Assembly: GCA_050084515.1 (NCBI GenBank)
Contig: CM114271.1
Location: forward strand, 20,708,001-20,772,000
Direction of reading: 5' to 3'
Source: Blasia pusilla
Taxonomy: Eukaryota
DNA length: 64,000 bases
The notes under the pieces were generated by a model, which had not been told where the DNA came from, ran no database searches, and was given only the letters and a program-made list of their open reading frames with translations. The position numbers and the translations under genes were made by a program. Positions 1-64,000 of this stretch are shown here, piece by piece. Positions within the stretch are counted from its first letter, which is position 1. Each line of letters opens with the position of its first letter.

Positions 1-325
1 ACCGCCCTGATTATTGTTGCCGCCCTGATTATTGTTGCCTCCCTGATTGTTGTTGCCTCCCTGATTGTTGTTACCACCTTGATTGTTGTTGCCGCCCTGG
101 TTATTGTTGCCGCCCTGGTTATTGTTGCCGCCCTGATTATTGTTACCGCCCTGATTGTTGTTGTTACCTCCCTGATTGTTGTTGTTACCGCCCTGATTGT
201 TGTTTCCGCCCTGATTGTTGTTGCCGCCCTGATTGTTGCTGCCGCCTTGGTTATTGTTGCCGCCCTGATTATTGTTGCCACCTTGATTGTTGTTGCCGCC
301 CTGGTTGTTGTTACCGCCCTGGTTT
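1..325 (-). repeat. Coding minisatellite, ~18-bp unit (gccgccctgattattgtt) encoding (GGNNNQ)n in frame with peroxidase exon 4
   Basis: Tandem units are directly visible; length variation occurs in whole codons and there is no stop codon on the minus frame. Confidence 0.9.
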
Positions 326-29091: not shown

Positions 29092-29600
29092 GAAGAGGCC
29101 CGAATTCTCATTTCTCACCCTAGAACCAAACTCACCCTCTGAATAGTTCTAGATGGAAGTCACATACGATCGAAAATCATTTTGCACCTTCCAAGCCGTG
29201 ATGTACAAAACAACAACTTCTTTTGTTCTTGCAGCTTTTCTCCTCGCCTTTCTCTCACTTCTCTGGTGAATTCTTCAGAGCCCATGATACACTCTACTAT
29301 GGATCCATACGTCGTATACTTCCTTGATCAATTCTAAGATTTTCTCTCGCTCATTCAATCGCTCATTCACTGGTTGCTCGCAATTGCAGATCTGGACCCG
29401 ATTCTGATTTCTGGTCCTAGGCTGCATCCATAATTCAATCAATCCCAAGATCCCTGGATTGAGCGAGTATCCTCTATGGGACTCTAGGGAGATTTCTTAG
29501 GATAGAGTCCATCAGAGCTGATAAAAAATTGAGCAAGTCATAAAAAAACCTACGAGAGTTCTGTTTTGGTGTAAGTTGAAGGAAATTGCGAAATCAATAA

Positions 29601-34700: not shown

Positions 34701-35449
34701 AGCGGATCGGAGGGGCTGGTTGGTTGGTGACTCGTTCATTGTTGGAGAGGCTTCAAGGCAACTCGTGGTAGCTCGGGGTGAGTGGGCGTGAGAGGCGGAG
34801 TAAGGAGCAAGGAGCAAGCAAGCAAGCTTGCTTGCTTGGGGGTGAGGCAATTTTTGCAGGATTTAGGATTTGAGTTTTGCATACCTGGTCACCCATCTTT
34901 GGGCTATTCTGCCTGGAGGACGCTTAACTGCTGAGTTCTTAACTATGCCATTGTCTGCATTGTTGTAGCTCATTTGGTGCTGTTCGGAGAGGTGTTAGGC
35001 ACTTTATGCATCTCAGGTTATTGGTTGATGTACCTCTAGCGCATAGTACGGTGTAGCCTCTCCATGCAGGTGATATTTTCAGGTGCTGCGAGTTCGACTA
35101 GCACGTCATCGACCCGCGGCGGAGTAGCTATTGCGTTAGAATTGTGTGGTGGGTTTTGTGGATTCAGAGGGCACCACGTTTGGTGGATTGTGTTACCTTG
35201 ATTTCCATTTGCGATTGGAGGGTTGTCGTTGGATGTCTTGTGTTTGGATCCCCTCCATTGTGCTTCTTGCTTGCGCGCCCATTGTTAGGGTTGACGCTGA
35301 TTTCCATAGTAGTGTTACTCCTATGTGCTACTGATAGTGAGGCTGGAGTGATGACCAGTAGACCGTGGGAGTCTTCTTGTGGTGATGAGAAATTAGGTTG
35401 CCTACACCCATAGCTAGTAGAGCTACAATAGTAGAGCGACATCGACGTC

Positions 35450-38400: not shown

Positions 38401-41400
38401 GGAGATACGTGTATGTGGAGCGAGATGAGACGGCCCAAAGAGTCTCATCCCGACATATTGGTCAGTTGATGCGGAGATATCCTGAGTTGTTGCCGCCATT
38501 AGCTATTCCTGGGTACCAATGTGCTTTACCATCACACATTGCATTGTTAGGAGTGCAGGACCTTGAGAGGGTTGGTCCTGTGGATTTGGTGATTGCTGGA
38601 TGGCCATGTCAGGGTCATACACGTGCTGGTCGTGGTGAGGGATTACATGACCCTAGGTCTCGATTGTTTTGGGAGATGTTACGGGTGTTACGACATCTTC
38701 AGGTTCATCAAGCACGTGCTCTAGCTTACATTCTGGAGAATGTTCCATTGTTGGGTGACACTCGGACCCGGATGATGGCGAGTGTTCATGAGGTGCGGTC
38801 TTGGATTGGACCAGCGGTGTTGTTGGATGCAGCGCGAGTTGGCTCGCGTGCACATCGTCCACGCTTGTGGTGGACAAACTTGTTGCCTAGGGAGGTTCTA
38901 CGTCGAGCATATGATGCAAAGGCGGCGGGATCCGCCTTCAAAGTGGATAGTATCTTGAATCTTGGCGACTTTCTCAAGTGGTGAGGGTTATTGATCGGTC
39001 ACCCATGGCGGTGGTGAACCGTGTGGGCCGACCTAGGATGGCACTACCCACATTTGTGAGTTTTCCGCGTCACATGCCTACAGGGGAAGGTGGTCGGGGC
39101 TTGTATGGGATTCTCATGTGCGGCAGTTGGTGGAGCCTAACGTTGATGAGAGAGAGCGTGCGATGGGATTTACTCTTGGCGTGGCGGTTGCTTCTATTTA
39201 CGAGGCTTCACGACGTCATGTGTTGGGTGAGGCCATGGACCTGAATTGTTTGACTTGGATTTTGAGTCTTGGTATGGCCAAGGCGTCGACTTCGGACTAT
39301 GTCGTGGGTCTTCCACCCTTGTAATGAGCTCGATGGCTACCGGGACGGTAGAGGCATCGGTCAGCGCAGGAGAGTAGTATTTTGCATCCTTGGAGTAAAT
39401 GGGATGTAATGGTTGGGCATGTGGAGTTGGTTGCTCATCTGGTGGAGGAGTTATTTGCTCGGATGATGGTGTAGCTAAGGGTGTATCATCTTGTGAGGGG
39501 GTTGCGAGCGACCAATGGCATCGTCCTCTCCCTCTAGTATGCCAGTGGAGGAGACTTGGGAGCCATTACTTGGGCCCAAGCTTACGGGGGAGGTGAGAAA
39601 CGACGCTGACACGGTTCCTACGTGCTTATAGGAGTTGTTTTGTCTTTAGCATGAAGGAGTTGGGTTCTCTGGTTGGACCGGTATACGGATTGATTTGGCT
39701 AGTGATACGCCAATCTTCCGTCGTCCCTACCGATATAGTGATATGGAGAGGGACCTGATTGAGTAGGACGTTGGACCTTTTGGAGGCTGGATTAGTGGAG
39801 TTGTCGCATGGAGAGTATGCATCGCCACTATCATGCACGCTAAAAGGATATGCATGGCAACTACACGGATAGGCGGATGTGTGGAGATTACCGCCCTATC
39901 AATCGGCAAACCAAGGCCGATAGGTATGCCATGCCTACACGAGGAGATCTTTGATGTGGTGGGACAGCAAAGATTTTCAGTACTTTGGATCTTGAGGCAG
40001 GATACCATCAATTGCCGATTTGGGAGAGTGACAAGGCCAAGACAACATTTTGGGGTGTCAACTCTCATGGCAAGGGGATTGTTTGTACAAGTGGAAATTC
40101 TTACCCTTTGGGTTGAAGAATGCACCTGCCGAGTTTCAAAGAGTGATGGACAGGATCCTAGCAAGGTTGGATTTTGTTCGGTGTTACATTGATGATATCT
40201 TGGTGTTCAGTAATACGGTGGAAGAGCATCAGATACATTTGCAGATGGTGTTTGAGCGGTTGAAAGCTCATGGTCTACGTTTGCATCCAGGAAAGTGTAA
40301 GTTCTTCCATGAGGATGTTGAGTACTTGGGTCATGTGATATCTCCAGGTGGTTTGGGAGTTCAGCAAGCAAAGGTGGAGGCTATTGCACTTATTCCGCGT
40401 CGGGTAGATGTAAGTAGAGTTCGAGCATTCATGGGATTGGCGAACTACTATCGGAGGTATGTGAAGGGATTTATTGCTATGGCAAAGCCTTTGAACCAAT
40501 TGCTGAAATCAGACCAAGAGTGGCACTGGGGAGATGATCAGGAGAGAGCTTTTGGGGAGCTTAAGGCCCAGTTGGTGGCGGCGCCTATCTTGAGGAGACC
40601 TATCAGAGGGCGCCCATTTCAGTTACACACTGATTGGAGTAGGTTGGGACTTGGAGTGGTGTTGACACAACATGATGATGAGCACATGGAGTTTGTGGTG
40701 GCCTATGCAAGTCGTTCGAATAATGCAATGAGTCACGCGCTATAGTTCATATGAGGGAGAGTGCTTGGCAATAGTGTGGGTGTGGCACACTTTAGGTGTT
40801 ACTTGTTTGGCACACAGTTTACCCTTGTTTGATCACCGGCCGCTCAAGTGGTTGATGGAGTCGGACAAACTTACAGGGAAGCTTGCACGATGGGCTCTTA
40901 TCTTAGAGGAGTATGACTTCCGGGTGGTACATAGACTGGAGTTGCCAACCTTGATCTTTGATGGGTTGAGTAGGAACCCATGTACTAGCCAAGAGGATAC
41001 AACTGGGGCTAGATGGCATGGCAAGGTTGATGAGGAGATGGTGCCAGGTTGGCATGCATCCGCCTTTTATGTTGGTTAGGGGTGGACTCTAGTATGGAGG
41101 ACCACATGATATCTTACTCTAGTCGAGAGTAGATGGCGACCTTCGATCCTAAGGTTGGAGATGGTGGTACGGATCAAGGTGATATTCATGATGATGCGTT
41201 GGTGTTGGAGTTCCTACGGACCAGTAGGGTGCCAGGCATAGTGAGTGCCAAGGAGCGAGACCGTGTTCTTCAACGTGCTAAGAGGTATAGATTGGAGGGA
41301 ACACATATTCTCCCATGTGGGAGGATGTTAGAAATGCAGTAGTGCCACATTTGGCTCAGAGAGAGCGCATTGTGCGACATGCCCATGAGGAGTTGGGACA

Positions 41401-42605
41401 TTTTGGGATAAAGCGTGCGTATAGCTTACTCCTTGGCGTATTGGTGGCGTGGCATGCATACTCAGTGCAGCGATTGGTGTCACGTTGTATGGTTTGTGAC
41501 CGGGTGAGGGCATCATTTAATGCCCCTACACCACAATTACACCCCTTGCCTATTATGGGGTTGGGTTACCGTTGGAGTGTGGACTTTTTGGGACCGTTAC
41601 CATTGGTATGCGACATCATTGATATGTGTTGGTGATGGTGGAGCACTTCTCCAAGTGGATTGAGTTGGTGGCATTACCGGACAAGGCAAGTGAGGAACGG
41701 CGTATGCGTTTTGGATAGAGTGCTTAGTCATTTTGGTGCAATGGTGAAGTCTTGACCGACCGAGTCTGAGTTTGGTGGTGAGTTTTAGGTCTTGTGTGAC
41801 AAGGCATTGATTGATCATCGGACCACGTCTCGAGATCATCGAGGCGGATGGTTTGGTGGCGTGTGGTTCAGGCGGTGAAGAGGGCATTGCGCAAGTATGG
41901 CCTCTGAAGGGCATCTTAGGAGGATATTCGGTTGCCATGGTTAGCCATGGGGTATAGGTTCAGTCGCCAAGCATCCTTGGCTTCCTTCTCACCTTATTTT
42001 CTGTTATACGGCCGTGATCCAGACTTGCCAGCAACAATTCGTCGGGAGTCTAGTGAGGTGGTGGACCTTGATGACCCAGAGATGTGGATGAGGGTGTGTT
42101 CTCAACGGGCGGAGCTCTTTCGGAGAGTTATGCCAACAGCCTTTGAGAATCTTGCCATTGCTCAACACAGGGATACGTTGCGGTATGCAACCATTCGGGG
42201 TGGGGGCTATCAACCATCGATTCGTAGGTTCCATGTGGGGGACTATGTCTATTTGCAGCAGATTGCCCCGACAACGTTGGATGTGACGGCAGCGCACTAT
42301 TTTACGAGTGCGTGAGGTATTAGCTTCTAGAGTTCTCATGTTGGAGGGTCGTGATGGAGTTGTTTGGAAGGACCATGTGCATAATTGTGCGCCATGTCAT
42401 CTTCCAAATGTGGATGGTATCTTATTGACCCAAGCTTAGCCATGATACGTGCTAGCTTGAGGTGCATGTTGTGTGGGTCTGCTTTGTGTAACGCACCCGT
42501 ATGTTGGTGTGTGATCGGTGTTCTAGGGGTTGGCACATGATGTGTTTGACTCACGTTTGGATGTTGTTCCTCTTTGGAAGGTGGGTTTGTCCTCGATATA
42601 CTTAG
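35450..42605 (+). pseudogene. gag-pol polyprotein of element A
   Basis: Gag (FQHLEGPPMDDYHEF; knuckle CWTCGGDHVRKFC), protease VLLDSGA (~37600), RT LPFGLKNAPAEFQR..YIDD (40100-40200), RNase H FQLHTDWS, integrase HHCC (HAHEELGHFG..CMVC) with core WSVDF, and a degenerate PHD at ~42463-42597. Confidence 0.9.
38325..39240 (+). pseudogene. DNMT3-like C5-cytosine DNA methyltransferase domain within the element A polyprotein
   Basis: Motif I VLDLFGGISTG, II YVERD, IV DLVIAGWPCQG, VI YILENV, VIII RAHRPRLWWTNL, IX ERERAMGF and X RHVLGEAM, in linear order. Confidence 0.9.
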
Positions 42606-44837
42606 GAGAGGTAGATGACTTGATCTTTGCATGATATGGATTACGGATGTGCGACTAACGACGGGCAACCTAGCACCGGCCTTCGATTCGGGCACCCAAG
42701 AAGGTGTATAGCATGTAGTAGATGTATAGGGCTACAGGAGTTAGAGGGACCTAACCGCCTTGATTAGGGGGCGAGTTGTGGTACACTTGCGTTTGTGGAT
42801 ACTCTCGTCTATGTTATGTATGTATGTGAGTATGGTATGTCGATGATGTATGTTGTATGGCGATGGGGATTCGCACGACAATCATCATGACCATACGGAT
42901 TATGTCGTAGAGTATAGTCTTTGGTAGAGGCCATTCCTTATGTAGGACCGTAGTGGCTTGGTAGAGATGCGGTTCCATACATAGGGTTGGGGGTTACTCA
43001 CTTGGGGTGACTTTCCCAATAGGGCCCGCTCTTAGGTTGGAGGATATAAGGTGGCTTGCCCTCAAAGAAACGATTAGTTCTTTGAGTTGAGCCTGCTTGC
43101 GTTGGGAGTTAGCCTTGGTAGTGAGTAGAGCTCTTGGCTATGGTGTTTCCCGCAAGCTTCGACCTAGATTCTCCCATCGTGGAGTGGGTTTGGCTCGATT
43201 GTATGTGATTGTAAACGTGTTTTATGACAGTAGGTCTTTCACGGATTTCAAGTTGTGGTACACTTGCGTTTGTGGATACTCTCGTCTATGTTATGTATGT
43301 ATGTGAGTATGGTATGTCAGCGATGTATGTTGTATGACGATGGGGATTCGCACGACACCCGTCATACGCGATGCTGGATGGAATCCTACAAACACGGTGA
43401 TATGGGTGCGAGAGGGGGTGCTTCTTATGAACACCTCACCTACATTGAGGGATGTTTTTAGGACCGCCAAGAATATTGAGTGCAACATGGTGGAGGAGAG
43501 CGTAGCCACCATGAGTTCTGGGCGAGATCAGTTACGATTGCCTACACCACCAGTGCAGCAACGTGGATTCCGCGATAGGTCTGTGGCACCACGAGCTCAG
43601 GGAGGATACCAGGAGGCCATGCCACAAAGACCTGCGCCTTCATATGCGGCTCAAAAGTAGCCGCCTATGATGATTTGTTGGGCATGTGGTGAAGCCCATC
43701 ATTAGCGTGATTGCACTCGTCAAGGTCATGGACGCGTGCCTCAACATGGAGGAGGAGATGGTGCTGCACTTGGAGGTTATTGGCGTGATTATTGTTAGAG
43801 GAATGGTCACACACGCGCCATGTGTTTCAGCTTATACCAGCTTATGTCCGGACCGAGGGCCAAAGAGGGCACGAAAGTGAGTTGCCGGTCCGGGTTTGCC
43901 TAGAGATCCTGCACTAGGTGGTCACGTTGGGAGACGAGGAGCTAGATTCGCTCAAGGGGGTCGTGGAGGAGGTAGAGTCCCACCATCTAGACACCTCGAG
44001 GGAGACGCCAAGCAGGAGGTTGGGATGACTGCTCAGACAGAACAACTACAACACCAGATTTCTGCTATGGCATTGAGGCTACCCAATGCCGGATCCGTGG
44101 CATCGACGTCTTATGGAGCAACCAGAAATATGGAGGATCATGGTTGGATATGCGGGGTTGCCCAAATGGAGGCCACCGCAATTGTTACGTGTGGAGCAAC
44201 CGCAGAGTTGGATCCACACGAGGGGAAGCCAGCAAGCCGACTAGGCTTCCTCAATCTTCACATTGTCTTAGGCGATGAGGACCCCATCGACGGGTCATGC
44301 TTAGAGTTCCCAGAGAGTTGGTGATACTATTGGTGTGCACACATGGAAGCGAGTGCAATGACTCCTATTGCTAATGCTCAGGAGGAGCATATGTCAAGCA
44401 CATTGTTGGGGGTGGTCACTATTGTGTACCGCGCTCCTTTATTTTCTGCTTCCGATGTTATGATGTTGGAAGGTACGCCTGCCGAGGTTTTTTGGCTGGC
44501 CGCTACGTTATGTGATCGTGGATTTGGTGTTCCTACGTCACACTCAAGGGTGATTGTAGAGGAGGTGATGTATCTGCCCTTGGAGCTTATGCTCGGGCCG
44601 TCCACGTCAGATTCATGGCAGGCTGTGGCTGCTAGGATGGCGGAGATTCCCGTTAGACCCATGATAGAATATGCCATGGCTTCTCTTGGTGTTGTGTTGC
44701 TGGATAATCGGGGAGCGGTCTTCCACTTGGTGAGTCCAGGACGTAGAGTTTTTAGTCCGCAGCGTGTCCTATTGGATTCGGGAGCGCAACCCCTGATGTT
44801 GGGGAAAGCGACATTAAAAGTTGGGCTTGACAAGAGC

Positions 44838-45480
44838 TGTCGTGCGCATACAAATTGCTGCATAACATACATCGCTGTCACCAAACACACACACAAACAT
44901 ACACAATCCCAAGCTAACTCATGACATCCAAACAACGAGACAAGAAGTACCAAAATATCTCCAATAAATCAAGATCCAATCTCTCTCAACACCATATCTC
45001 TCAAATGTGTGCACTCCCATATGTCTTTCTCAATGTCAAACCAAACCCACTCTCCTAATGAGAGGCTTGGGTTACACAGAAAAGGCAAGCAAGACCATAG
45101 CTCTGCTGCCTCATGCCAAGAGGTTCAACAATGAAAGAATGAGCTCTCAAGCTCTCTCTCCTTGAGGTATACCCCTCCCCTCTCCCAAGCTCTCTCCATG
45201 GTAACCTATGCTCCCAAGTCACCTCCTTGGCTCTTGACCTGATGTAGGAGGTCAAAGGCCACTTACCAAAAATATAAAGTCGACCATATACTCAAAAGGA
45301 TACTTACCTAAAATAATAAGTTTCTCAATATGGCTCCAAATCAACCGAAACGAAGGGGAAACATGCTCTCTCAGGTTTCCCGGGGCCTCAGCAAGTCATC
45401 ATCGACCTCGTGAGCCTGTCCTCCACTACTAGCAAAGGCGCTCTACTAGATCTCACCGATATATCCTAAAAGACGTGATA
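44838..45480 (-). mobile_element. Solo A+B terminal-repeat unit of the element B family, with 4-bp TSD GAGC
   Basis: Highly similar to 53568-54209. GAGC at 44834-44837 and 45481-45484. Host codons GLTRA|DVERC rejoin across the insertion. Confidence 0.92.
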
Positions 45481-48400
45481 GAGCCGACGTGGAGCGTTGT
45501 TCATTCCGGATATAGACATCCTTGGATGGAGCAAGTACCACACAATATATCACCCAACAGGAGGTCGTGATGAGGATTCGTTTGAGACATCCTACAGATG
45601 AGTCCGTGGTGCAAGCCAAGGCGATAGTGACCGATGTAGAGTCCTACGACGTCTTGGTTGGTGGAGCAATGTTGTACCCTATGGGATTTTCCCTATATTA
45701 CTGGAAGGAGTCAGCGTCCTACAAAAAAGGATGGTGGTCCAGTGATGGACGAATTTGTCCATTATTCGTTCGATTCATAGGTGGAGTGATCGAGCGACGG
45801 CCACTAGAGATGGCGACTTTATCAATATTTAGCAACGCCATCAGGTGGCCTTCTAATTTGATTGAGGGCATTGTCATTGCATCAGGGCATTTCCGGGCCG
45901 ATCCATGCATGAGGGCATCGTCTAATTTGATCCATGGATCGGCCGGACAATGTTGTTGGATGCGGCGAGTGTAGATTCACGAGCACATCGCCCGCGTCTT
46001 TGGTGGACAACCTTGGTGCCACATGAGGTTTTTCCGAGGGCATGCGTGAGAGTGGAGTGCCCCTCCCATTTTTTGGTGGATTCTATTATGGATCCAAGTC
46101 GTCGATCACAGGGAATACGACACGATGATCGACCTTCTTTGACTATGGTCAACAAGATTGGCATGCCACGAGCTGCCTTTCCCACATTGGTGAGTTTTCC
46201 CGCTTCCTATGCATTCAAGGAGGCCGGGCCTGGCTTGGTTTGGGATGACCAGGTATAGCGGTTGGTGGAGCCCAACGCTGATGAGCGAGAGCGAGCGATG
46301 GGATTCCCCACAGGAGTGTCGGCACTACCGTCACTATGAGAGGCATCACGACATCATGTCTTAGGTCAGGCAATGGACCTGAACTGCTTGATATGGATTT
46401 TCAACTTAGGAGTAGCTAAGCAAGGTCATTTGAGGATGCAACAGATCATACCTGTTGCGTTGGTGAGCCCAATGCCTACCGAGACGGTTGAGGGAGTGGC
46501 TGGGGGCGAGACCTCAAGAGCTCAATACACCAGGGGCATGGTTGCACAAAAATGGACAAGTCCTTCCTTAGGATGGACATGGACGGATACACCAGTTCCT
46601 TAGGAGTTATAGGAGTTTTTTTTGCATTCAGGATGTATGATTTGGGTAAGGTGAAGGGTCGAGGGATCCACATTGAGTTGTTGAGTGACACGCCGATCTT
46701 CTGGTATAGGATCCTACAGGTACAGTGTCATGGAGAGGGCTCTTATTCACAGTGGGAGCTAGGACTTGGTTGGAGCAAGACTAGTGAAGATGTTGCATGG
46801 AGAGTATGCATCTGCCACTATCATGCCCGCCAAGAAGGATGTGCATGGCAATTGGACGGATAGGCAAATGTGTGGAGATTACCGACCTATCAATCGGCAG
46901 ACAAAGTTTGATAGGTATGCCATGCCCACGCCTTAGGAGATCTTTGATGCTATTGGGCATGCAAAGGTCTTTAATTCTTTAGATCTTTGAGCGAGATACC
47001 ATCAACTGCCTATCTGATTGGAGGACATATAGAAGATGATATTTTGGGGCATCAATCCTCAAGGGAAGGATTGCTTATACTAGTGGCGGTTCTTACTATT
47101 TGGGTTAAAGAACGCCCCGTGTGAGTTTCAGAGGGTCATGGATAGGATCTTGGCAGGTCTGGATTTTGCTAGGTGTTATATATATGACATCGTAGTCTTT
47201 AGCGCCAAGGTTGAGGAGCATGAGCGACACTAGAGGAGGTATTCCGACAATTGCAGTTACATGGGTTGAAGCTACATCCAGACAAGTGCAAGTTCTTCTA
47301 TGACCAGATTGAGTACCTAGGTCATACGATATACCTAGGGGGCCTTGGTGTGCAGCTGACGAAAATAGAGGCCATTTCAAGCATTCCACGCCCTACAAAT
47401 GTGAGTCGAGTTTGAACATTCATGGGATTGGCAAACTTCTATCGACGACACGTCAAGGGTTTCAGTTTGATTGCGAAACCGCTTATCAAGGTGGATCAAG
47501 AGTGGCATTGGGGGATGAGGAGGAGAGAGCATTTTAGCTGCTCAAGGACAGATTGATATCCGCGCCCATATTGATCGAGGAAACTGATCAGAGGGCCTCC
47601 TTTCCAGTTGCATACCGATTGGAGCATGTTGGGGCTTGGAGCCATGCTCACCCAACATGATGATGATGGTAGAGAGTTCGTGGTGGCTTATGCTAGTTGC
47701 TCAAACAACGCTGCAGAGGCGAAGTATAGCTTGTATGAGGGTGAGTGCTTGGCTGTGGTCTGGGTTGTTGCACATTTCATGTGTTATCTATTCAAGAACC
47801 CCTTTACCATCATTACAGATCATCAACCACTTAAGTGGTTGATTGAGTCTGACTTAAGTGGTTGATGGAGGTTTCATCAGGGAGACTATGTCTACTTGCA
47901 AAAGATGGCATCCACGACGTTGGATGTGACTATAGGGCGCACCATCTTGAGAGTGCGTGAGATTTTTCCATCTTGTGTTCTCTTATTGGAGGGACCATGT
48001 GCATAATTGTGCGCCATGCCACCTTCCTAACATTGATGGTATAGTTGATTCGAGCTTAGCAGTAGTTCCTATAGGCTTACGATGTATGTTGTGCGGTTCC
48101 GCTTGTGGTGCAGCCACTATGATAGTTTGTGATGATTGTTCAAGAGGATGGCATATGGCATGTTTGACGCCACCTCTCACTAGGGTTCCTCAGGGACGAT
48201 GGAAGTGTCCCAGATATACATAGAGTAGGTAGTTCTAGATTCCGACTTGTGTTTGTGACATGGATGACAAGAAGGCGACCAATTATGGGTCTCGAACCCC
48301 GATGTATGGCTCAAAGTTGGATCCAAATAGGATAAAAATATTTCTAGCATGGACTCCACACTTATGGACAATCTCCATGGTAACAAACAAGGCAACCAGA

Positions 48401-50142: not shown

Positions 50143-51060
50143 GCGCCCACCACCTAGACGCGTCAAGGGAGACGCCGGGTGTGAGGCTAGGATGACTACT
50201 CAGATACATCAGCTACAAGAGCAGATTTCCGCTATGGCATTGAGATTACCCGATGCCGGATCCGTGGCATCGACATCATATGGAGCAGCCAAAGATATGG
50301 AGAATCCTAGTTGGATGTGCGGGGTTACCGTGATGGAGGCCGCGGTAGTTGTGACGCGTGGAGTAGCCGCAGAGTTGGATCCACAGTGAGGGAAAGCGAG
50401 GAAACATACTAGGCTTTCTTCAGTCTTTCACGTTGTCCGAGGCAATGAGGACCCCATCGATGGGTCTTGATCAGACTTCCTAGAGAGTTGGTGATGTTAT
50501 TGATGTGCACGCACGAAGGGCGATGGGAGAAGCGAGTGCGATGACTCCTATTGCTCATGCTCAGGAGGGGCATGTATCGAGCACGTTGTTGGGGGCGGCC
50601 ATCGTTATGCATGGAGTTTGAGTTCTTGCATCACGTTCAGAGGTGATTGCAGAGAAGATGATGGACCTGCCCTTGGAGCGGATGCTGGGGCCATCCACGT
50701 GAGATTCATGGCAAGCTGCGGCTGCTAGGATGGCAGAGATGCCCACTAGACCCGCGATAGAGCGTGCCATGGTTTCTCCTGGTGTTGTATTGCTGGATAA
50801 CCGGGGAGAGGTCTTCCAATTGGTGAGTCTCGGAGATAGAGCTTTTAGTCCGCAGCGCATCTTGTTGGAGTTAACGTCCTACATACAAGGATGGCAGTCA
50901 GATGATGGGCGCCTTATCTCATTACCCGTTCGATTCACAGGTGCAGTGGTTAAGCGACGGCCAGGAGAGATGGCGAACTTAGCAGCATTTAGCAATGCCA
51001 TCACTTGGCCTAGTGATTTGATTGAGGGACATGTCCATGCAGAGGATACTCCCGTGTGGA
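50143..51060 (+). mobile_element. Additional internal fragment (gag end/protease region) of the element B family
   Basis: QIHQLQEQISAMALRLPDAGSVASTSYGA and PGVVLLDNRGEVFQLVS match ORFs 59735-60454 and 59474-59707; internal deletions are present. Confidence 0.85.
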
Positions 51061-53099: not shown

Positions 53100-53567
53100 A
53101 AAGATAATTCATAGGAAAACTCTAAGAAAAATGGAGTTGTGATGGAAAGCTCGAAACTATTTAAATGGTTTTTGCACCCGTGCGATTAGACCTTCTTCCA
53201 AAAGAAAGTTTCTCTATTTTTCATCTTGTTAAGGGATCTTATCTTGACCTGATGTTTAGGACACTTGATCCTTAAGGTGTATTTAGACTTCTTGAAAATT
53301 TTGAAGCAAAATAAAGTTGTGACCAAAATCTCAAATCTATTTCAGTGGTTTATGGACTTGAGCAATCACACCTTCTAGCAAAAGATACTCTTTCCAATTT
53401 CCATCTTGTTCAAAGAGTTCATTTTGTCTTGAAATTTGTGCCACTTGATCCTAAAGGTGAATTAGAGTTTCTGCAAAGTTTCAAGTACAATGAAGTTATA
53501 AACCAGAGTCCAAAAATCTCTAAATTTTTTTGGACCTATACGATTAAACCTTCTTGGAGAAGAGGGT
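53100..53567. repeat. Degenerate ~180-bp tandem repeat, continuing at 63817-64000 beyond element B
   Basis: Homologous anchor motifs at 53136, 53316, 53495 and 63928 (equivalent to 53675 once the insertion is removed). Confidence 0.65.
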
Positions 53568-54529
53568 TGTCGTGCGCATACACATCGCTACACAACATAC
53601 ATTGTTATCATTGAACACACACACAAACACGCACGATCCCATGCTAACTTATGGCATCCAAATAACGAGACAAGAAATACCCAAATATCTCCAATAAAGT
53701 AAGATCCAATCTCTCTCTACACAATCTCACACCATAGCTCTCAAAGGTGTGCACTCTCTCTCATGTCAAACCAAACCCACTCTCCTAATGAAAGGCTTTG
53801 GTTACACTCACAAGGCAAGGGACCATAGCTCCGCTGCCTCATGCTAAGAGGTTCAACAAATAGAGAATGAGCTCTCAAGCTCTCTCTCCTTGGGATATAT
53901 ACTCCTCCCCTCTCCCAAGCTCTCTCCATGGTAACCTATTCTTCCAAGTCACCTCCTTGGCTCTTGACCTGATGTAGGAGGTCAAGGGACACTTAACAAA
54001 AATAGAAAGTCAATCATATACTAAAAATGGTACTTACCTAAAATAGTAAGTTCCTCAATATGGCTCCAAATGAGCCAAAACAAAGGGGAAACCTGCTCTC
54101 TCAGGTTTCCCGGGGCCTCAGCAAGTCATCCTCAACCTCCTAGGCCTGTCCACCACTACTCTTGAAGACGCTTTACTAGATCTCACCGATCTATCCTAAA
54201 GGACGTGACTGCTGTCGTGCGCATACACATCGATACACAATATACACCGCTATGACTAAACACACACACAAACACGCACGATCCCATGCTAACTCATGGC
54301 ATCCAAACAACAAGACAAGAAGTACCAAAATATCTCTAATCGCCCCCCTAGCTAGTGGTTAGGTCCCTCTAACTCTAGATAGCCATCTATCCCTACCTAC
54401 CATGACATACATCTTTCGGACGCTAAGAGCAAGAAGGCCGGGTGCTCATGTGGCCCCATCGTTAGTCGTCTTCCTATCATCCATGTCAGAGAAAAAGTCG
54501 CGATCGAAACCTACCTAGTATCTCCTCTA

Positions 54530-54665
54530 TGTACATCTGGGACACATCCATCGTCCCCAAGGAACCCTAGTGAGAGGTGGCGTCAGACATGCCATATGCC
54601 AACCTCTCAAACAACCATCACAGACTAGCATCGTGGCTGCACCACGGGCAGAACCACACAACATA
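54530..54665 (-). other. PHD finger at the integrase C-terminus
   Basis: CMLC..LVCDGCLRGWHMACLTPPLTRVPWGRWMCPRC is a complete Cys4-His-Cys3 pattern. Confidence 0.92.
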
Positions 54666-57600
54666 CAACGCAAGCCTGCAGTAACTACTGCTAAGCTTGG
54701 ATCCACTATACTATCAATGTTAGGAAGGTGACATGGTGCACAATTATGCACATGGTCCTTCCATACCATACCATCGTGTCCCTCCAACAAGAGAACACCG
54801 GATGGCAAAACGTCACGCACTCTCAGGATAGTGCGCCCTGCAGTCACATCCAACGTCGTCGGTGTTGTCTGCTGCAAGTAGACATAATCTCCCTGATGAA
54901 ACCTCTGGATAGTTGGTCGATAACCACCACCCTGAATAGTCGCATACCTCAACGTATCCTGATGTTGCGCAATCGCCAAGTTCTCGAACGTCATGGGCAT
55001 CACTCTCTGAAATAACTCAGCCCTCTGAGAACATGCTCGCACCCATACATCTGGGTCATCAAGGTCCAACACCTCACCAGCATCTCGACGAATGGCCGCA
55101 GGTAAATCTGGCTCTCGGCCATAAAGTAGCAAGTACGGTGAAAAAGACGCTAAGGATGCTTGCCTGCTGAATGTGTATCCCATCGCCAACCATGACAACT
55201 AGAGGTCCCAATCTCCTAGGTGACCTCTCTGCAAGCCATACTTGCGTAAACCCCTCTTCACCGTCTCCACAACTCTCTCCACTCATCCATCCACCTCAGG
55301 ATGATCTCGCGAAGTCGTGCTGTGGTCGATCAGCGCTTGATCACACAAGGCTTGGAACTCACCCCAAAACTCGGTACCCTGGTGTGTCAACACCTCAGAC
55401 GGTGCAGCATAATGACACAACACTTTGTCAAGGAAGGCATAAGCTACTCCCTCACTCGCTTTTTCAGGCAATGCAACCAACTCGATCCACTTCAAGAAGT
55501 GCTCGACCATCACCAACACATAACGACTGTGACGCTGTGTCAAAGGCAAAGGTCCTGCAAAATCCAAACTCCATCTATACCCTAAGCCCATGATCGGTAA
55601 TGGATGCAATTGTGGAGTCGGAGCATTGAACGATGCTCGGACCCGATCACACACCATGCACCTGGAAACAAATTGTTGAACGTCAGTCTGCATGCCTCGC
55701 CACTAATACTGGATCTGGAGCAAGCTGTACGTCCGCTTCACCCCAAAGTGACCCAACTCCTCGTGGGCATGCTGCACTAGTCGTGCTCTTTGCAAAGGAT
55801 GCGGCACTACGCGTACTCTGCCATCCTCCCAAACCCTCAAAATATGTGTCCCCTCCCAACGGAACCGTCTGGCCCGCTGTAGGATCCGATCTCGCTCTCT
55901 AGCACCCACAGTGCTTGCAACGCTGCCAGTACAAAGGTACTCGAAGACTACTCCATCAGCATGAATATCTCAGCCACCTATCGTCTCCTCACTGGCCTCG
56001 GGATCCAAGGACTCTCCATTAGACCTCGCCATCGAAGTCTCCACACTCTGGCTCTCCATAGCCAACATGCCTAAATAGGCTGACGCGTGCCATCTTGGCA
56101 CCGACTCCTCATCACTCTCTCCATGCCATCGAGCTCCAGTCGCATCTCGCTGACTCGGGCATGGGTTACGACTCAACCCATCTGCATCTTGGTTGAGCGT
56201 CCTAGGTCTATGTACCACCTGAAAATCATACTCCTGCAACAATAGAGCCCATCTTGCAAGCTTCCCTGTAAGCTTGTCGGACTCCATTAACCACTTGAGT
56301 GGTTGATGATTAGTGATGATGGTAAAGGGATTGCCGAATAAGTAGCACCTGAAATGCGCGACAGCCCACACCGTAGCCAAGCACTCACCCTCATACGAGC
56401 TGTACTTTGCCTCTGCAGCGTTATTCGAGCGGCTAGCATAAGCCACCACGAACTCTCTACCCTCATCATCATGCTGGGTGAGCACCGCTCCAAGCCCCAA
56501 CATGCTTCAATCTGTGTGCAACTGGAAAGGACCCCCCCTGATCGGTCTCCTCGAGATGGGCGCAGACGTCAACCTGTCCTTGAGCAACTGAAATGCTCAT
56601 CCCCCCAGTGCCACTCGTGATCCACCTTGGTCAGCAAGGTCAGTGGCTTCGCAATCGAACTGAATCCCTTGATGTATCGCCAATAGAAGTTCGCCAATCC
56701 CATGAATGCGCGAACCCGGCTCACATCTATACGGCGTGGAATGCGTGAGATAGCCTCTACCTTCATTTTCTGAACACCAAGGCCCCCTTGGTATATCGTA
56801 TGACCCAAGTACTCAATCTGGTCGTAGAAGAACTTGCACTTGCCTGGATGTAGCTTCAGCCCATGTAATTGCAATCTTCAAAACACCTCCTATAGATGTC
56901 GCTCATGCTCCTCAACTGTGGCGCTAAAGACTACGATATCATCAATATAACACCTAGCAAAATCCATACAAGCCAAGATCCTATCCCTCACCCTCTCAAA
57001 CTCAGCCGAGGCGTTCTTTAACCCAAATGGTAAGAACCGCCACTAGTACAAACAATCCTTCCCGTGAGGATCGATGCCCCAAAATGTCGTCTTCTGCCCA
57101 TCCTCCAATCTAATAGGCAGTTGGTGGTATCCGGCTCGCAAATCCAATGAACTGAAGACCTTTGCGTGACCAATCGCATCAAAGATCTCCTCAAGGGTGG
57201 GCATGGCATACCTATTGGACTTCGTCTGTTGATTGATAGGTCGCTAATCCCCACACATCCGCCTATCAGTCCAGTTGCCATGCACATCCTTCTTGGCGGG
57301 CATGACGGTGGCAAATGCATACTCCCCATGCGACATCTCTACTAGTCCTGCTCTGACCAAGTCCTGGCTCCTACTCTGAATCAGAGCCCTCTCCATATCA
57401 CTATACTTGTAGGGTCGTCGGAAGATCGGCGTATCAGTCGACAACTCAATACGGATCCCCGGTCCCTTCAGCGTACCCAAATCCTCCATGCTAAACGCAA
57501 AGCAGCTCCTATAACTCGTGAAGAACTGATGTATCCAGCGCCGCTCTCCTCCTTTCAACTTAGGACCCATATCGGCTCCCAAGTCTCCATCGTGACTACG

Positions 57601-57959
57601 GTAGGACTCTCTGGCGCGGGTATCGGTGGTTGCTATGGTGCAACCCCGTCTTGAACAACAACGCTCGGCTGCTCTTTTGCAGCCAACTGCAAACTTTGAT
57701 CTCCTCCATATGCAGTGCCCGAAACCACGCTCGATGTTGTGGCTATCATCTCCTCGCGTACATGCAAAACATCCCAAGAAGTCCAAGGGTGTCTCTCCCA
57801 ATCTCCCCTAGTGCGTAGATCTCCTCGGGTTCGCCCCCAGCCAGTGCCTCCACCGTCTCGGTAGGCATGGGGCTCACCAACGCAACCGTTGTGATTTGTC
57901 GCGATCTCATACGACGCTGCTCAGCCACTCCCAAGCTGAGGATCCATGTCAAGCAGTTC

Positions 57960-58885
57960 AGGTCCATCGCCTGACCCAAGATATGGTGTCGTGATGCCTC
58001 TGACACTGACGGTACTGCCGTCACTCCTATGGGAAATCCCATCACTCGCTCTCTCTCATCGGAGTTGGGCTCCACTAACTGGTGAACCTGGTCATCCCAA
58101 ACCAAGCCAAGACTGGCCTCCTTTTATGCATAGGAAGCGGGAAAACTCACAAACTTGGGCAAGGCTGCCCGCGGCCTGCCTACCCTGTTGATCACAGTCA
58201 ACGGTGGTCAATCATCGTGCCTCACTGCCTGTTATGGACGACCTGGATCTAGAATGGAATCCACTAACAAATGGGAGGGGCGCTCAACTCTCGCATACGC
58301 CCTCTGTAACACTGCATGGGGCACCAATTTGGTCCACCATAGACGCGGGGGATGGGCTCTAGAACCTACACTCGCCGCATCCAAGAACACTGCTGGGTTG
58401 ATCCAAGCACGCACTTGATGAGCACTCGTCACCACCCGTGACCTGGAGTCTCCTAAGATCGGCACATTCTCCAAAATGTAGGCTGGAGAACGAGACTGGT
58501 GCTCCTGCAACTGCCGTAAGACCCTCAACATCTCCTAAAACAACCTGGACCGAGTGTCAGCCAACCCGCTGCCTCGTCCAACACTCGATTGGCCCTAACA
58601 TGGCCAACCGGAAATGACCAAATCAATGGTCCCTACCCGCTCTAAGTCCTGCGCCCCCAACAACGAAATATCCCTCGGTAGGGAACTTTGGTACCCATCA
58701 TGGACGCTTGTGCATAATAAGTCGGAAAACGAGGCGAATCGCACCACATGTCGTAGTGAGACGCGCCTTGCAACATCATCACTCTCCACATACAGGTACT
58801 GTTGTACTCGCACTCCTGCCTGCAAAACAACAGCTAACCCGGTGCTAATCCCTCCAAAGAGATCTAACACTCGAATACCCTCCCC
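57960..58885 (-). pseudogene. DNMT3-like methyltransferase domain of element B
   Basis: VLDLFGGISTG, YVESDD, DLVISGWPC*G, YILENVP, RAHPPRLWW, ERERVMGFP and RHHILGQAM. Confidence 0.9.
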
Positions 58886-61800
58886 CGGGATACACCACAC
58901 AATGGGTGTGATATCCAAGGGTGTCATCGTAGCACTCCCTGCTACCTCAGGTTCCTCAGACCTTTCACGCTCCGCTGCAAACGCTTCGCTCCACGCGGTT
59001 TGCACGTGCTCATCTGCCAATCGTCGAAGCTCCTCAGTCGAGCCCCACAACGGCACCTCTACCATAACACTCCTCTCCATAGAAATTTCAGGAATGGGAG
59101 TATCCTCTGCATGGACATGTCCCTCAATCTAAACACTAGGCCAAGTGATGGCATTGCTAAATGCTGCTAAGGTCGCCATCTCTCCTGGCCGTTGCTCGAT
59201 CACTACACATGTGAATCGAACGGGTAATGAGCTAAGGCGCCCATCACTTGACTGCCATCTCGGTCTGTAGGACGCTGACTCCTCCTAGTAATCCCAAGAA
59301 AACCCCATTGGGTATAACACTGCTCCACCAACCAAGACGTCGTAGGACTCTGCATCAGTCACTATCGCCTTGGCGCGCACCATGGACTCATCTGTAGGAT
59401 GTCCCGGGCGAATCCTCACCACAACCTCTTGTCGGGTGATATACTGTGTGGTACTCGCTCCACCCAAGGATGTCTATATCTGGAATGGACAACGCTCCAC
59501 ATCGGCTCTCGTCAAGCCCAATCCTCTGAATGACGCTTTCCCCAACATCAGGGGTTGCGCTCCTGAATCCAACAAGACGCGTTGTGGACTAAAAGCTCTA
59601 CCTCCAGGACTCACCAACTGGAAGACCTCTCCTCGGTTATCCAGCAACACAACACCAGGAGAAGCCATGGCACGCTCTATCGTGGGTCTAGCGGACATCT
59701 CCGCCATTCTAGCAGCCGCAGCCTATCATGAATCTCACGTGGACGGTCCGAGCATACGCTCCAAGGGCAAGTCCATCACCTCCTCTGCAATCACCTCTGA
59801 ACGTGATGCACGAACTCCAACTCCGCGCTCACATAGCGTCGCGGCCAGCTGAAAAGCCTCGGCGGGCGTACCCCCCAAGGTCATAACATCAGAAGTAGAA
59901 AATAAAGGAGTGCGGTACACAATGGTGGCCGCCCCCAACAATGTGCTTGACACATGCCCCTCCTGAGCATCAACAATAGGAGTTGTCGCACTCGCTTCTC
60001 CCATCGCCCTCCGTGCCTGCACACCAACAACATCATCAACTCTCAAGGAACTTTGATGAGGACCCATCGATGGGGTCCTCATCGCTTCGGACAACGTGAA
60101 AGATTGAGGAATCCTAGTCTGTTTTCTGGCTTTCCTTCGTTGTGGATCCAACTCTGCGGCGGCCTCCATGTGGGCAACCCGGCACATCCAACCAGGATCC
60201 TGCAGATCTCTGTGTGCTCCATATGATGTCGATGCCACAGATTCGGCATCGGGTAACCTCAATGCCATAGCGGCAATCTGCTCTTGTAGCTGCTGTATCT
60301 GAGCAGCCATCCCGGCCTCACGTCCGGCGTCTCCCTCGATGCGTCGAGGTGGTGGTTCTCTACCTCCTCCATGGGAGGCTCCACCACCATGTCGGAAAAC
60401 TCGAGCTCCTCGTCCTCCAACAACACCACCTTGGTGCACTATCTCTAGGCCCACCTGAACCGGCTACTCGCTTTGGTGCCCTCTCTGGCCCTCGGTCCGA
60501 ACGTAACTCACAATGTACACTGAAATACCTGGCGCGTGTATGAACATACCTTTGACAATAGTCACACTGATAACCTCATGGTGCAGCACCATCTCCTCCT
60601 CCATGCCGAGTCATACGTCCATGACCTTGACGAGTGCAATGGCGCTGATGATGGGCTCCACCACATGACCAACAAGTAATAGTAGGCGGTTGCTGTTGAG
60701 CCGCATATGAAGGCGCAGGTCTCTGTGCCACGGGCTCCCGGGAGCTCGTGGTGCCACAGTTGACCTATCTCAGAGTCCACGCTGCTGCACACGTGGTGCA
60801 GCCAATCGCAATTGCTCTCACCCAAAACCCATGGTGGCTACGCTCTCCTCCGCCATGTTGCGCTCAATGTTCTCAACGGTCCTAAAAACATCTCTCAATG
60901 TAGGGGAGGTGTTCATAAGAAGCACCCCCCCACTTTGTGGGCGCGCAGGTCAGTCGAGCATCGCGTACCATGACTGGATAGCATGAGCCTCTGTCACCCC
61001 CTGAGTGACGTTGATCAACCGGCGCAAACGAGTGTAAGCCTCACGTAAAATCTCACCCGGGTGCCTCTGGAAGTTGTGGATGCTCCGCAACTTTTCCCTC
61101 CGTACCCCTTGGTAGCTCGCCCTCAACTCAGCAAAAAACTCAACCACGGGGTTGAACTTGGGACGAACCCAACTAGACGGTGCAACTGCTCCAGTGCGAG
61201 TGACCCCTCCTAAAACATCACTAGTGGAAGAGGAAGTAGCCTCTCCTGACTCCTCCTCCTCATCTGGGAACGGCTCTGTCCATGACACATAGTGTGGGTC
61301 ATAGTAGAGTCTCCATGCCTCAATCTCCTGGGCATATCTATGGGAAAACTCATGGTAATCGTCCATGGGTGCCCCCTCTAAATGCTGGAACATACCGTTC
61401 CATGCTGTAAACGGGTTGAACTCTCTAGAGTTCCTGGCCCGTTGGGAGTCGCATGAACTCCTAAACTCTGCTATGAAATCGTGCAACTCAATCGTACCTA
61501 CTACACTTGAAAACCTACGCGGTCCTCTACCCCGGTCGTCCATCTCGTACGCCCAACTGGTAGGACCACTCACAATGTGTGGCGATGTGCTCACAAATTC
61601 CTCTACACCCTCTCCCTCATCTGATGATGACACACAAGGAGGTTGAGGTGATCCCTGAAGTGAAGACCCTCGGAACCTCACGCCACTCCGCGTAAAACCT
61701 CTAGAGCTACTCTCGGGTTCACCACCTCGCCTCTCAAAGTCCCGAACGGACGCCGTGATGATCCTCGTGCCTTTCTCATCCAATCACTCTTGCCTCGCGA

Positions 61801-64000
61801 GTAATCCTTCAATCACTCATCCCAAACATGCGGCACTCGATCTACAGTCTCCCTCCCCGAGACATGTAACGTGCGGCAATAAGCAGCGTGGTGCGGCAAA
61901 TCGACCAGGCTATCATCCCATCGATAACCTACCCTCAACTCTGGACATCCCACACACGTCTATGTCTCCTAAATCACATACATACATGATGCTCTCAGCA
62001 TCCACACACCCAATATCCCCAAATAAACTACCCAAATCCCAGAATCCCTCACACGTGCAGGGTAAAGGACCAGAATGGGTAACCTGAACACATGTCGATG
62101 TCGCTCCTCATAAACTATGAATCTCGACCCCAACTCGTTCGTGGAGACAACTCCTCCAATCAGCAAGTCATACTCCTCCCGTACTGACGTTGCTCAAAAC
62201 TCCTCGATAGACGGTGCAGTTCCAGCGGAACGGTGCGCGTTGCAGGCGGCACGGAACGGCATGGCCCTCGATGATGGGATGCGGCACTCGGCGGCATACC
62301 CTCCTCAATCAACAATAAACCCACACTCTGCTCCACAATGCCAGAGCGGCTCCGCGATCAAGACGGTGCGGTATGGCCACGAGCGGCACGGCGCGGCAAT
62401 CGACGGCGCGTTGCGGCTACGGGCGTCACGGCACGGTACCCAATCTTCGTTGAGCGGCTACCAATCACAACATAGCAGCAGGAAATCAAAACTCAAACAC
62501 TATAACATGAGGTCATATGCCATCACAGGTTGATGACGGTGGCGGCCAAAACAAAGTTCGTGATGGCCACGCAAGTCCGAGAATCAACGAACGTTGTGGA
62601 AGACCCTCCACTCCGTAACGGTGGCAATAGCAACCAAGGGTGGAAAACGGAAGGTGGACCATTGACGGTGACGGTTGACCGTTGATGGTGACGGACCAAT
62701 GGTGACAGTGACGGTTGACCGTCGAAGGTGAAATTTTACCGTTGACGGTTGACAATGACTATGACGGCGACGGACGCCGCCGGTGTGGCGGCTGGTTTAG
62801 GGTTTGCACAATTTAACCCTAAAAATTTCCTAGCAATGGCAGTATTGCACAGCGTGCACAGCTTCACGATCTATGCCAGCATTAAAAAATATTTGGAATC
62901 GGACATTCCAGTAAAAACTGACAGGGATTGTTGTAAAGCCCAATGTCTCTTTCTTCTACCCAACATTCGGCAGCGCTTCCGCGCTGATTCCTCCCAAAAT
63001 AATTGTAAAACCTATAAAAATGCAAATCAGCAAGCGACATGGTGCTCCCGAAAGCACCGGCATGGGGCAACCCGCCCCCATACTCAATCCCTATCAGAAA
63101 TTGGGCAGCGCTTCCGCGCGCCACTCTTTCACACGAAAAATCGGCAAATGCAACGAAAAATCCAAGCAACCCTTGCTCCGATGAGCACTCCCATGAGCCG
63201 TTGAATGGGGAACACGGTCCCCAACCTACAAAAACAACGAGTGACCAGCGAGCTCCTCCATGAACCTCTCTCACTCTCTCATTCTCGCATTCTCTCTTTA
63301 TAAAGTAAGATTCAATCTCTCTCTACACAATCTCACACCATAGCTCTCAAAGGTGTGCACTCTCTCTCATGTCAAACCAAACCCACTCTCCTAATGAAAG
63401 GCTTGGGTTACACTCACAAGGCAAGGGACCATAGCTCCGCCGCCTCATGCCAAGAGGTTCAACAAAGAGAGAATGAGCTCTCAAGCTCTCTCTCCTTGGG
63501 ATATATACTCCTCCCCTCTCCCAAGCTCTCTCCATGGTAACCTATTCTTCCAAGTCACCTCTTTGGCTCTTGACCTGATGTAGGAGGTCAAGGGCCACTT
63601 ACCAAAAATAGAAAGTCGATCATATACTCAAAATGGTACTTACCTAAAATGGTAAGTTCCTCAATATGGTTCCAAATGAGCCAAAACGAAAGGGAAACCT
63701 ACTCTCTCAGGTTTCCCGGGGCCTCAGCAAGTCATCCTCGACCTCCTAGGCCTGTCCTCCACTACTCTTGAAGAGGCTCTACTAGATCTCATCGATCTAT
63801 CCTAAAGGACGTGATAGGGTCTTTTCAGTTTACATCTTGTTCAAAGACCTCATCTTGATCTTAAATTAAGGAAACTTGCTCCTCAAGCTGTATCTAGAGT
63901 TATAAGAAATTTTTAAGAAAAAATGGAGTTGTGATCAAAAGCCCAAAAATATTTAAATGATTTTGCAAACCTACGCAATCAAACCTTGTAGAAAAAGAGA

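Follow-up and report, generated by a model that had tools for sequence, protein, structure and literature searches.

We analysed a 64,000-nt stretch of Blasia pusilla DNA (assembly GCA_050084515.1, contig CM114271.1, positions 20,708,001 to 20,772,000; hereafter the window, with positions counted from its first letter), and describe here a retroelement that occupies 53568-63816 on the minus strand and is built from two repeat units, A and B. Read in its own orientation, the element runs A1, internal region, polypurine tract (PPT), B1, the dinucleotide GC, A2 and B2. The A unit is a 517-nt repeat with a U3-R-U5-like organization, present at 63300-63816 as the 5′ repeat A1, which has no B beside it, and at 53694-54210 as A2. 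The B unit is a 128-nt repeat, present internally at 54213-54340 (B1) and terminally at 53568-53695 (B2), where the 3′ end of the element reads ...GCGCACGACA. A2 is in direct contact with B2, the two overlapping by 2 nt (AT), and the GC spacer at 54211-54212 separates the end of B1 (..CA) from the start of A2. We located these repeats by repeat search and self-blastn and then aligned each pair globally. A2 (53694-54208) matches A1 (63300-63814) at 96.1% over 515 nt in the first two comparisons and at 95.7% over 517 nt in the global alignment, with 14 transitions, 8 transversions and no gaps (Kimura two-parameter (K2P) distance 0.044). B2 and B1 are 89.1% identical over 128 nt (14 differences; K2P 0.121), and eight of these differences cluster in about 26 nt, at 54233-54258 in B1 and 53588-53613 in B2. 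An earlier note on this DNA, made from the sequence alone, had placed A1, B1 and the A2-B2 unit within 1-2 nt of these limits and had proposed the pairwise alignments that gave the two distances. With its A pair about 4% diverged, the element is long dead.

The internal region is badly decayed, with 152 stops in one frame and recognizable domains scattered over all three frames of the minus strand. Pfam matches follow each other from 5′ to 3′ as RVT_1 fragments, RT_RNaseH, Integrase_H2C2, rve and a PHD finger. Upstream of them, a gag-like region at 60579-60764 (minus strand) contains a CCHC zinc knuckle, CWSCGGAHHQRHC, which has no Pfam match and was recognized as a motif by eye. Between a protease-like region and the reverse transcriptase lies the remnant of a DNMT3-like C5 DNA methyltransferase (57749-58663, minus strand), in which ENV and GFP motifs are visible and which has no Pfam match in this copy; part of it, 58320-58663, matches 38544-38887 of element A, a second element of the window that is described below, at 71.8% in blastn. 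The reverse transcriptase survives as three fragments within 56572-57243 (RVT_1, E = 4.7e-7, 0.0026 and 0.0032), followed on the same strand by RNase H at 55970-56506 (RT_RNaseH, E = 1.8e-32) and by an integrase with H2C2 and DDE core domains spread over two stop-to-stop frames at 55283-55969 (rve, E = 9.4e-10; Integrase_H2C2, E = 1.1e-5). The integrase frame closes, C-terminally, with a PHD finger encoded at 54533-54667 on the minus strand (PF00628, E = 2.2e-10, residues 178-222 of the open reading frame (ORF) 54527-55198). It stands at the place of the chromodomain of chromoviruses and may be a chromatin-reading targeting module.

The methyltransferase is better preserved in element A, where the open 235-residue ORF 38277-38984 (plus strand) matches the C5 methylase family PF00145 with E = 5e-10. 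In this ORF, motifs I (FGG), IV (PCQ), VI (ENV) and VIII (RxR) can be read, and it too lies between protease and reverse transcriptase. The best solved relatives in the PDB matches are DNMT3A and DNMT3B (E = 1e-12 to 1e-9), with DRM2 or HhaI at about 1e-3. We found 29 protein relatives. Those of named origin are all from Marchantia polymorpha, Calypogeia fissa or Sphagnum (47-78% identity), in all three of which they are annotated as hypothetical proteins, and as nearest neighbours they point to a probable bryophyte host. Among seven relatives that were scanned for domains, P0008 and P0015 have the methylase ahead of reverse transcriptase and RNase H, P0026 has an rve domain, and P0024 shows a weak, sub-threshold protease match ahead of its methylase. 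No tyrosine recombinase (Phage_integrase, PF00589) was detected in 37 translated ORFs from the two elements of the window or in the seven related proteins.

Relatives outside the window were collected from metagenome contigs by a pattern scan with methylase alignment, in which 357 stretches matched, 211 were confirmed and 80 were kept as loci (numbered L003, L017 and so on); all family-wide counts below refer to these loci. The loci L056 and L070 share both flanks and are therefore counted as one site.

On both sides of the element stands the tetranucleotide GGGT, at 53564-53567 on the left and 63817-63820 on the right (ACCC in the orientation of the element); for ends fixed by homology, a 4-nt match has a chance of 1/256. 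Its insertion target is a satellite array of roughly 180-bp monomers, copies of which make up the flanks (on the left, 53127-53567; repeat families D2 and D4, spacings 180 and 179), and which was picked up by repeat search, with copies 63-87% alike, and missed by Tandem Repeats Finder. Neighbouring uninterrupted monomers hold the target once and in register (aaaaga-aagt-ttctct and aaaaga-tact-ctttcc), compared with agaaga-GGGT(element)GGGT-cttttc at the filled site. These monomers are thus paralogous empty sites, and they indicate that the element was inserted here as one piece. Together with a duplication whose two copies border on A1 at its start and on B2 at its end, they support the proposal of the earlier note that the element integrated in its present A...BAB form.

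The duplication is 4 bp long across the family. We compiled 12 insertions with both ends available, three in the window and nine in the loci (L056/70, L017, L075, L033, L023/24, L038, L046/44, L045 and L047), and found seven perfect 4-bp duplications, three that match at three of four positions and two with no match. Reading the duplication as 4 bp retains TG...CA termini with a short inverted repeat (TGTCRTG). Taken alone, the copy at 53568-63816 can also be read with a 5-bp duplication (AGGGT), because its last plus-strand base is A. Across copies, T follows the duplication in 4/8 and A precedes it in 3/8, no single 5-bp reading fits all of them, and L023 allows 4 bp only. Only a 4-bp duplication fits the 12 insertions, as the earlier note had read it for GGGT. 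That note had further contrasted this length with a 5-bp duplication around a solo long terminal repeat (LTR) at 28278. This contrast was not confirmed, as the visible ends, 28278 and 29573, give an 8-bp direct repeat, AGTTGAAG, located at 28270-28277 and 29574-29581, and no obvious 5-bp one. The sequence 28278-29573 starts with TGTCGTGCGCC, like the ends of B units, and self-blastn found no other copy of it in the window.

The same layout is present in element A (33715-43357, plus strand), which belongs to a second family. In this element, A1 (33715-34076) is followed by a candidate primer-binding site (PBS; 34077-34085), and the 3′ part consists of B1 (42774-42880), the spacer AT, A2 (42883-43250) and B2 (43251-43357). 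Its flanks are CCGG and CCCG, and it is nested in a third, fragmented relative. The earlier note had described the two families as identical in layout and alike only at their extreme ends. The former is borne out and the latter is roughly right: the A units have no mutual blastn match, and similarity between the B units is about 67-70%. The termini TGTCA(Y)G...GCACGACA are common to both families; the family of our element has TGTCAYG...CGACA, with A as the second base in the copy at 53568-63816. A third instance is a solo A-B unit of this family at 44838-45480 (minus strand), flanked by GAGC on both sides, whose empty-site paralogue, 59505-59509, lies inside the element at 53568-63816. Both full elements of the window and the solo unit therefore show the layout.

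In the metagenome loci we examined repeat layout by self-comparison of the 32 loci of at least 9 kb and by motif scans. B1, a 2-nt spacer (NN) and A2 follow each other at five independent sites (L003, L030, L056/L070, L073 and L077); B2 comes next at four of them, and L003 is cut by the end of the locus. Among 26 full-length matches to A, 22 are of the 5′ type, 17 of which run on into a PBS-like motif. A B end precedes none of these 22 copies. The earlier note had named a B copy next to A1 as the observation that would speak against it, and we find no such copy. The A1...B1-NN-A2-B2 layout is a lineage trait and not an artefact, because it recurs in a second family, in a solo unit and at five further sites, because no B stands upstream of a 5′ A, and because a 4-bp duplication bounds the whole.

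These data also bear on the possibility that an ordinary LTR element was rearranged after insertion, either by loss of its 5′ B with a local duplication, by a 3′ solo LTR, or as a tandem or nested pair. The heavily nested region lends this idea some plausibility, recombination between B1 and B2 or A1 and A2 can occur, as the solo A-B unit attests, and contigs exist in which PPT and B are followed by flank. Against it, the junctions PPT-B1, CA-NN-TG and A-B recur in two families with dissimilar repeats and at five further sites, the duplication bounds A1 and B2 and no inner unit, none of the 22 5′ A copies carries a B, and the figure legends of a published study give the same layout for elements of Klebsormidium nitens (PMC5890265). 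We consider such a rearrangement highly improbable.

Further relatives occur in the window and in the loci. Plus-strand fragments at 32244-33699, 43414-44837, 45480-48289 and 50147-51053 represent at least one further relative, about 80% identical to 53568-63816. Element A and the solo A-B unit interrupt them, forming a nest of the same superfamily beside satellite DNA. In the loci, L042 16576-17234 belongs to a more distant family and contains a B-like pair 495 nt apart with a long G-run before its first member and a CATGACA-GT-TGTCATG junction, repeating the layout with a spacer that is non-palindromic. Separately, window positions 1-400 hold a tandem array with a period of 18-21 nt and at least 14 overlapping copies.

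We mapped sequencing records to 53460-54800. The DNA records are short Logan contigs (80-125 nt) of two runs, X1 and X5, from different studies under the same species label, and the RNA records are raw reads of two runs under that label. No single record spans this 1.3-kb stretch, so the support from these records is at the level of the family and not of the locus. Summed X1 and X5 depth is very high, showing that the family is highly repeated there. At exactly 53568, 39 X5 contigs diverge into unlike flanks, which confirms the terminus of the element. Position 54210, at the B1-A2 junction, is crossed by 6 X1 and 29 X5 contigs and by 23 and 30 RNA reads, all of which show another letter there, making the junction CA-GC-TG. 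The junction, whose support by reads the earlier note had made a condition of its claim, is thus backed by contigs and RNA of the family.

RNA covers the internal region, B1, A2 and B2 almost entirely in one direction (for example, 300.7 versus 3.1 in bin 54000-54044 of run X22). In most stranded libraries, this direction corresponds to sense transcripts of an element on the minus strand. The majority of RNA reads match the copy at 53568-63816 at only 90-95% and hence derive from relatives. At B1 positions within 54233-54258, other letters stand in almost every RNA read and in the few covering DNA contigs.

A mis-joining of repeats during assembly would find some footing in the very high copy number of the family in the mapped runs and in the lack of a record spanning the 1.3-kb stretch. 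Yet element A, separate metagenome assemblies and a published genome each show the layout independently, the B1-A2 junction is crossed by contigs and reads, and the satellite flanks and duplication are in register. An assembly artefact is accordingly even less credible than a rearrangement, and we judge the two very improbable even when taken jointly. The claim of the earlier note that the architecture is a lineage trait, neither an assembly error nor a tandem insertion, is supported by both window elements, the solo unit and the five metagenome sites.

Directly after A1, at 63288-63299 on the minus strand, lies a putative self-priming PBS, AAAGAGAGAATG, with a perfect 12-nt complement, CATTCTCTCTTT, inside A1 at 63464-63475 (minus strand). 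The complement is about 31 nt downstream of a TATATAT box (63501-63507) and would mark the transcript start; a 12-nt complement is expected by chance with a frequency of about 517/4^12 = 3e-5. In element A, the PBS is a perfect complement of 9 nt, and 14 of 15 locus copies have, at the corresponding position behind a TATA-like box, a complement with at most two mismatches. The complement site lies about 31 nt downstream of this box in all three groups. The PBS sequences of the two window families differ, each paired with its own complement, which at the level of sequence is covariation.

A second candidate priming signal, the PPT TAGGGGGGCG, lies directly upstream of B1 at 54341-54350 (minus strand). 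Its G-run, AGGGGGGCG, is conserved: it directly precedes B1 in both window families and stands before 23 of the 32 B matches in the loci. Nothing purine-rich precedes A2. Between the two repeats, B1 ends in ..CGACA and, after the 2-nt spacer, A2 starts with TGTCA.., so that the junction equals the element end joined to the element start. In the loci the spacer reads GC, TC, GC, GC, AT and GC, in the window it reads AT and GC, and CA-NN-TG is present in all eight B1-A2 junctions seen.

In some copies, a perfect small palindrome lies at the inferred transcript start (33888-33917, plus strand, and near A position 155-180 in L017, L014 and L023). In it, a PBS copy, a 3-7-nt loop and the complement follow one another, for example CTCAAAGAAC-ATA-GTTCTTTGAG, which places a second PBS-like site in A, just upstream of R.

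We propose the following route of replication from these signals. Transcription would start about 31 nt after the TATA box in A. The first 9-12 nt of the RNA would fold back onto the site directly after A1 and prime the minus strand, as in Tf1, and the G-rich PPT directly before B1 would prime the plus strand. Canonical two-jump reverse transcription would then give a linear DNA with B-NN-A LTRs at both ends. By the canonical rules, a PBS after A1 and a PPT before B1 predict such LTRs, and the chromosomal copy would consequently be a circular permutation of the product, with the left B moved to the right. The integrase ends (TGTCAYG...CRYGACA) would lie not at the tips of this product but abutted inside each LTR as CA-NN-TG. 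The integrated copy would represent the product circularised, with the A end joined to the B start as in the A2-B2 junction, and re-opened at one CA-NN-TG, the integrase assembling on the abutted-ends junction of a joined-ends intermediate that resembles a two-LTR circle. Passages of two reports describe cleavage of palindromic LTR-LTR junctions by retroviral integrases (PMC1905944, PMC1180852).

Taken as a whole, identity and mechanism together, this account is our best explanation, with a likelihood that we place just short of even. The specific step in which the integrase acts on a joined-ends junction, similar to that of a two-LTR circle, we put forward tentatively, with the balance tilting somewhat against it. 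In its strongest form, the account says that the lineage has moved its integrase ends inside the LTR of reverse transcription, that it must integrate from a joined-ends form opened at CA-NN-TG, and that the split repeats are the footprint of this requirement; in this form we regard it as conceivable but doubtful.

The B units are consistent with the proposed route in part. Copy-specific states are common to the B1 and B2 of one copy in element A, in L073 and, to some extent, in L077, which fits homogenisation in each cycle. In a test for position-specific inheritance, A copies showed no shared A2-specific states. The A2-B2 junction has the same length in four locus copies and is 1 nt longer in element A, and read mapping shows variable inserts at this junction that may reflect subfamilies.

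Several observations count against the proposed route. The A unit of our element's family ends in ..TTTAT and not in CA, a difficulty for the mechanism. RNA reads show no pile-ups of starts or ends on 53460-54800, and RNA 3′ ends were not located. The circle step is something we purely infer, no extrachromosomal DNA form having been observed, and all copies examined are degenerate, with no active master seen. Two different insertions, L056 and L030, share two B1-versus-B2 differences (rough p ~0.03), and in the copy at 53568-63816 divergence is greater within the B pair (89.1% identity) than within the A pair (95.7%; Fisher p = 0.003). These last two observations speak against a copying of B1 and B2 from one template in each cycle. 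A B2 derived from the B2 of the parent would explain them naturally, but they could also stem from gene conversion, from chimeras among the metagenome contigs or from a (TG)-rich tract that is hypermutable.

Copying of B2 from B2 is what a restoration of ends in the manner of DIRS elements would entail. Here the RNA would run from inside A1 to inside B2, A1, B1, A2 and B2 would mostly be copied directly, and the internal B1-NN-A2 would act only as a template or splint from which the untranscribed A1 start and the B2 tail are restored, as proposed for the split direct repeats of DIRS, PAT and Ngaro, before the DDE integrase inserts the product. Such a route draws strength from a layout that equals the split direct repeats of the DIRS order, from the position-specific differences common to L056 and L030, and from the significantly greater divergence of the B pair. 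RNA depth also continues over B2, although reads derived from B1 and B2 are indistinguishable. What speaks against it is that the conserved, covarying PBS by A1 and the PPT by B1 alone predict ordinary two-jump reverse transcription, that A copies lack position-specific inheritance, and that in three diverged copies B1 and B2 have copy-specific states in common. Moreover, we could devise no concrete scheme of priming in which both signals are used and B2 is copied from RNA. We consider restoration of this kind unlikely.

Some locus copies depart from the standard layout. The copy at L023 12587-13485 (the same site as L024) is aberrant, and its 4-bp duplication, CACA, is perfect; it contains two inverted segments (one a part of A, the other internal), followed by R-U5, a 9-nt copy of the PBS, five extra nucleotides and then B. 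It looks like a misfired product of reverse transcription that was still integrated. A PBS copy between an A end and a B start, as found here, resembles some circle junctions.

In a further 17 rows, representing about 14 sites (L017, L027, L028, L033, L038, L042, L044/46, L048, L066, L071, L075, L078 and others), PPT and B are followed by flank without A2-B2, and several of these copies have matching 4-bp duplications at both ends (L017, TGTT; L075, TACA; L033, TGTG). These rows could be LTR-less insertions (the product of a one-LTR circle), B1/B2 recombinants or collapses of short-read assembly, and we counted them neither way. L033 13868-18641 and L073 8251-12916 have downstream flanks that are 95-98.8% identical next to elements only 91% alike, and at this shared flank one contig has B only and the other B-A-B. 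At least one of the two contigs is chimeric, or the site was converted, and such contigs are unreliable.

We compared the element with known systems. With canonical Ty3/gypsy elements it shares the order gag, protease, reverse transcriptase, RNase H and integrase, the last with a DDE (rve) core, as well as TG...CA termini with a short inverted repeat, a short target-site duplication, and a predicted PBS by the 5′ repeat and PPT by the 3′ repeat. It differs from them in that its terminal repeats are not the same unit: in place of two identical LTRs bounding the element, the 5′ end has A alone and the 3′ end has B-NN-A-B, and the integrase termini lie inside the LTR predicted from PBS and PPT. 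The duplication differs too, being 4 bp here, whereas 5 bp is usual for plant Ty3/gypsy elements. The PBS is like that of Tf1 of S. pombe, a self-priming element whose PBS is complementary to the start of its transcript.

Elements of the DIRS order (PAT-like, Ngaro, SymbioDIRS-Dnmt3) resemble ours in their arrangement A1, coding region, B1, A2, B2 and in their internal joined termini, and some of them carry methylases, as far as the published passages go; in our element, likewise, B1-NN-A2 restates the joined termini as element end joined to element start. Unlike these elements, which have a tyrosine recombinase, ours encodes a DDE integrase (rve and H2C2) and has TG..CA ends, a candidate PBS and a candidate PPT. 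To our knowledge, DIRS-order elements make no integrase-type target duplication, and here a 4-bp duplication is present. Circle junctions of insertion sequences (IS) are abutted transposon ends. The two-LTR circle junctions of retroviruses, in the portions of the reports cited (PMC1905944, PMC1180852), similarly have two ends facing each other across a very short spacer as a possible DDE substrate. In contrast to these retroviral and IS junctions, CA-NN-TG here is permanent, inherited and transcribed within the integrated element, and its cleavage is putative.

The closest match is KnitGypsy-Dnmt3 of K. nitens, described as carrying a Dnmt3-related methylase inside a Gypsy Pol (de Mendoza et al, 2018, Nat Commun 9:1341, PMC5890265). 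The legend of Fig. 4c in that paper gives DIRS-like A-coding-B-A-B repeats together with Gypsy domains, and the legend of Fig. 1e gives the DIRS arrangement as "A-coding region-B-A-B"; a passage of a 2026 preprint (10.64898/2026.05.21.726589) refers to "streptophytes (Gypsy-DNMT3)" as previously described. Our elements agree in their Gypsy-type pol, in their A-coding-B-A-B repeats and, by sequence affinity, in a probable Dnmt3-related C5 methylase in the polyprotein, seen in element A and as a remnant in 53568-63816. They differ in that their nearest named proteins are from liverworts and Sphagnum and not from Klebsormidium, and in the PHD finger after the integrase. The text passages on KnitGypsy-Dnmt3 make no mention of a target-site duplication, PBS, PPT or junction, and the figure and supplements of that paper may overlap with what we report. 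Literature searches on split direct repeats with integrase or gypsy, on KnitGypsy-Dnmt3 and on Gypsy-DNMT3 returned nothing further on layout or mechanism, and a search on Marchantia or liverwort retrotransposons with methyltransferase likewise returned nothing further. We are highly confident that 53568-63816 is a dead, stop-riddled LTR retrotransposon of the Ty3/gypsy superfamily and Gypsy-DNMT3 type, inserted by its integrase into a satellite array with a 4-bp duplication. Judging from the published legends, the layout is already in print for KnitGypsy-Dnmt3, and our element is not the discovery of a kind. What is added here are the bryophyte nearest relatives, the Tf1-like candidate self-priming site, the PPT before B1 and the CA-NN-TG junction of abutted ends.

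Split direct repeats had been regarded as a mark of retroelements with a tyrosine recombinase. For a Gypsy element with an integrase and split repeats, our literature search found only the one figure legend on a charophyte alga, and no mechanism in the text it returned. The trait is widespread in relatives whose named proteins are bryophyte, where it comes with a clean 4-bp duplication of the integrase type and with ordinary-looking priming signals that predict an LTR other than the chromosomal one. This mismatch makes the route by which these elements replicate directly testable, and perhaps, by analogy, that of DIRS-like elements too. In practice, annotation by LTR finders built around a pair of identical LTRs will mis-call such elements, as well as solo A-B units and A-internal-B forms. 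If the proposed route is true in its strongest form, the A...BAB structures of DIRS, PAT and Ngaro could share a formal origin with those described here, namely a two-LTR circle opened inside one LTR, and these elements would be the first LTR retrotransposons in which circular cDNA is an obligatory intermediate and not a dead end.

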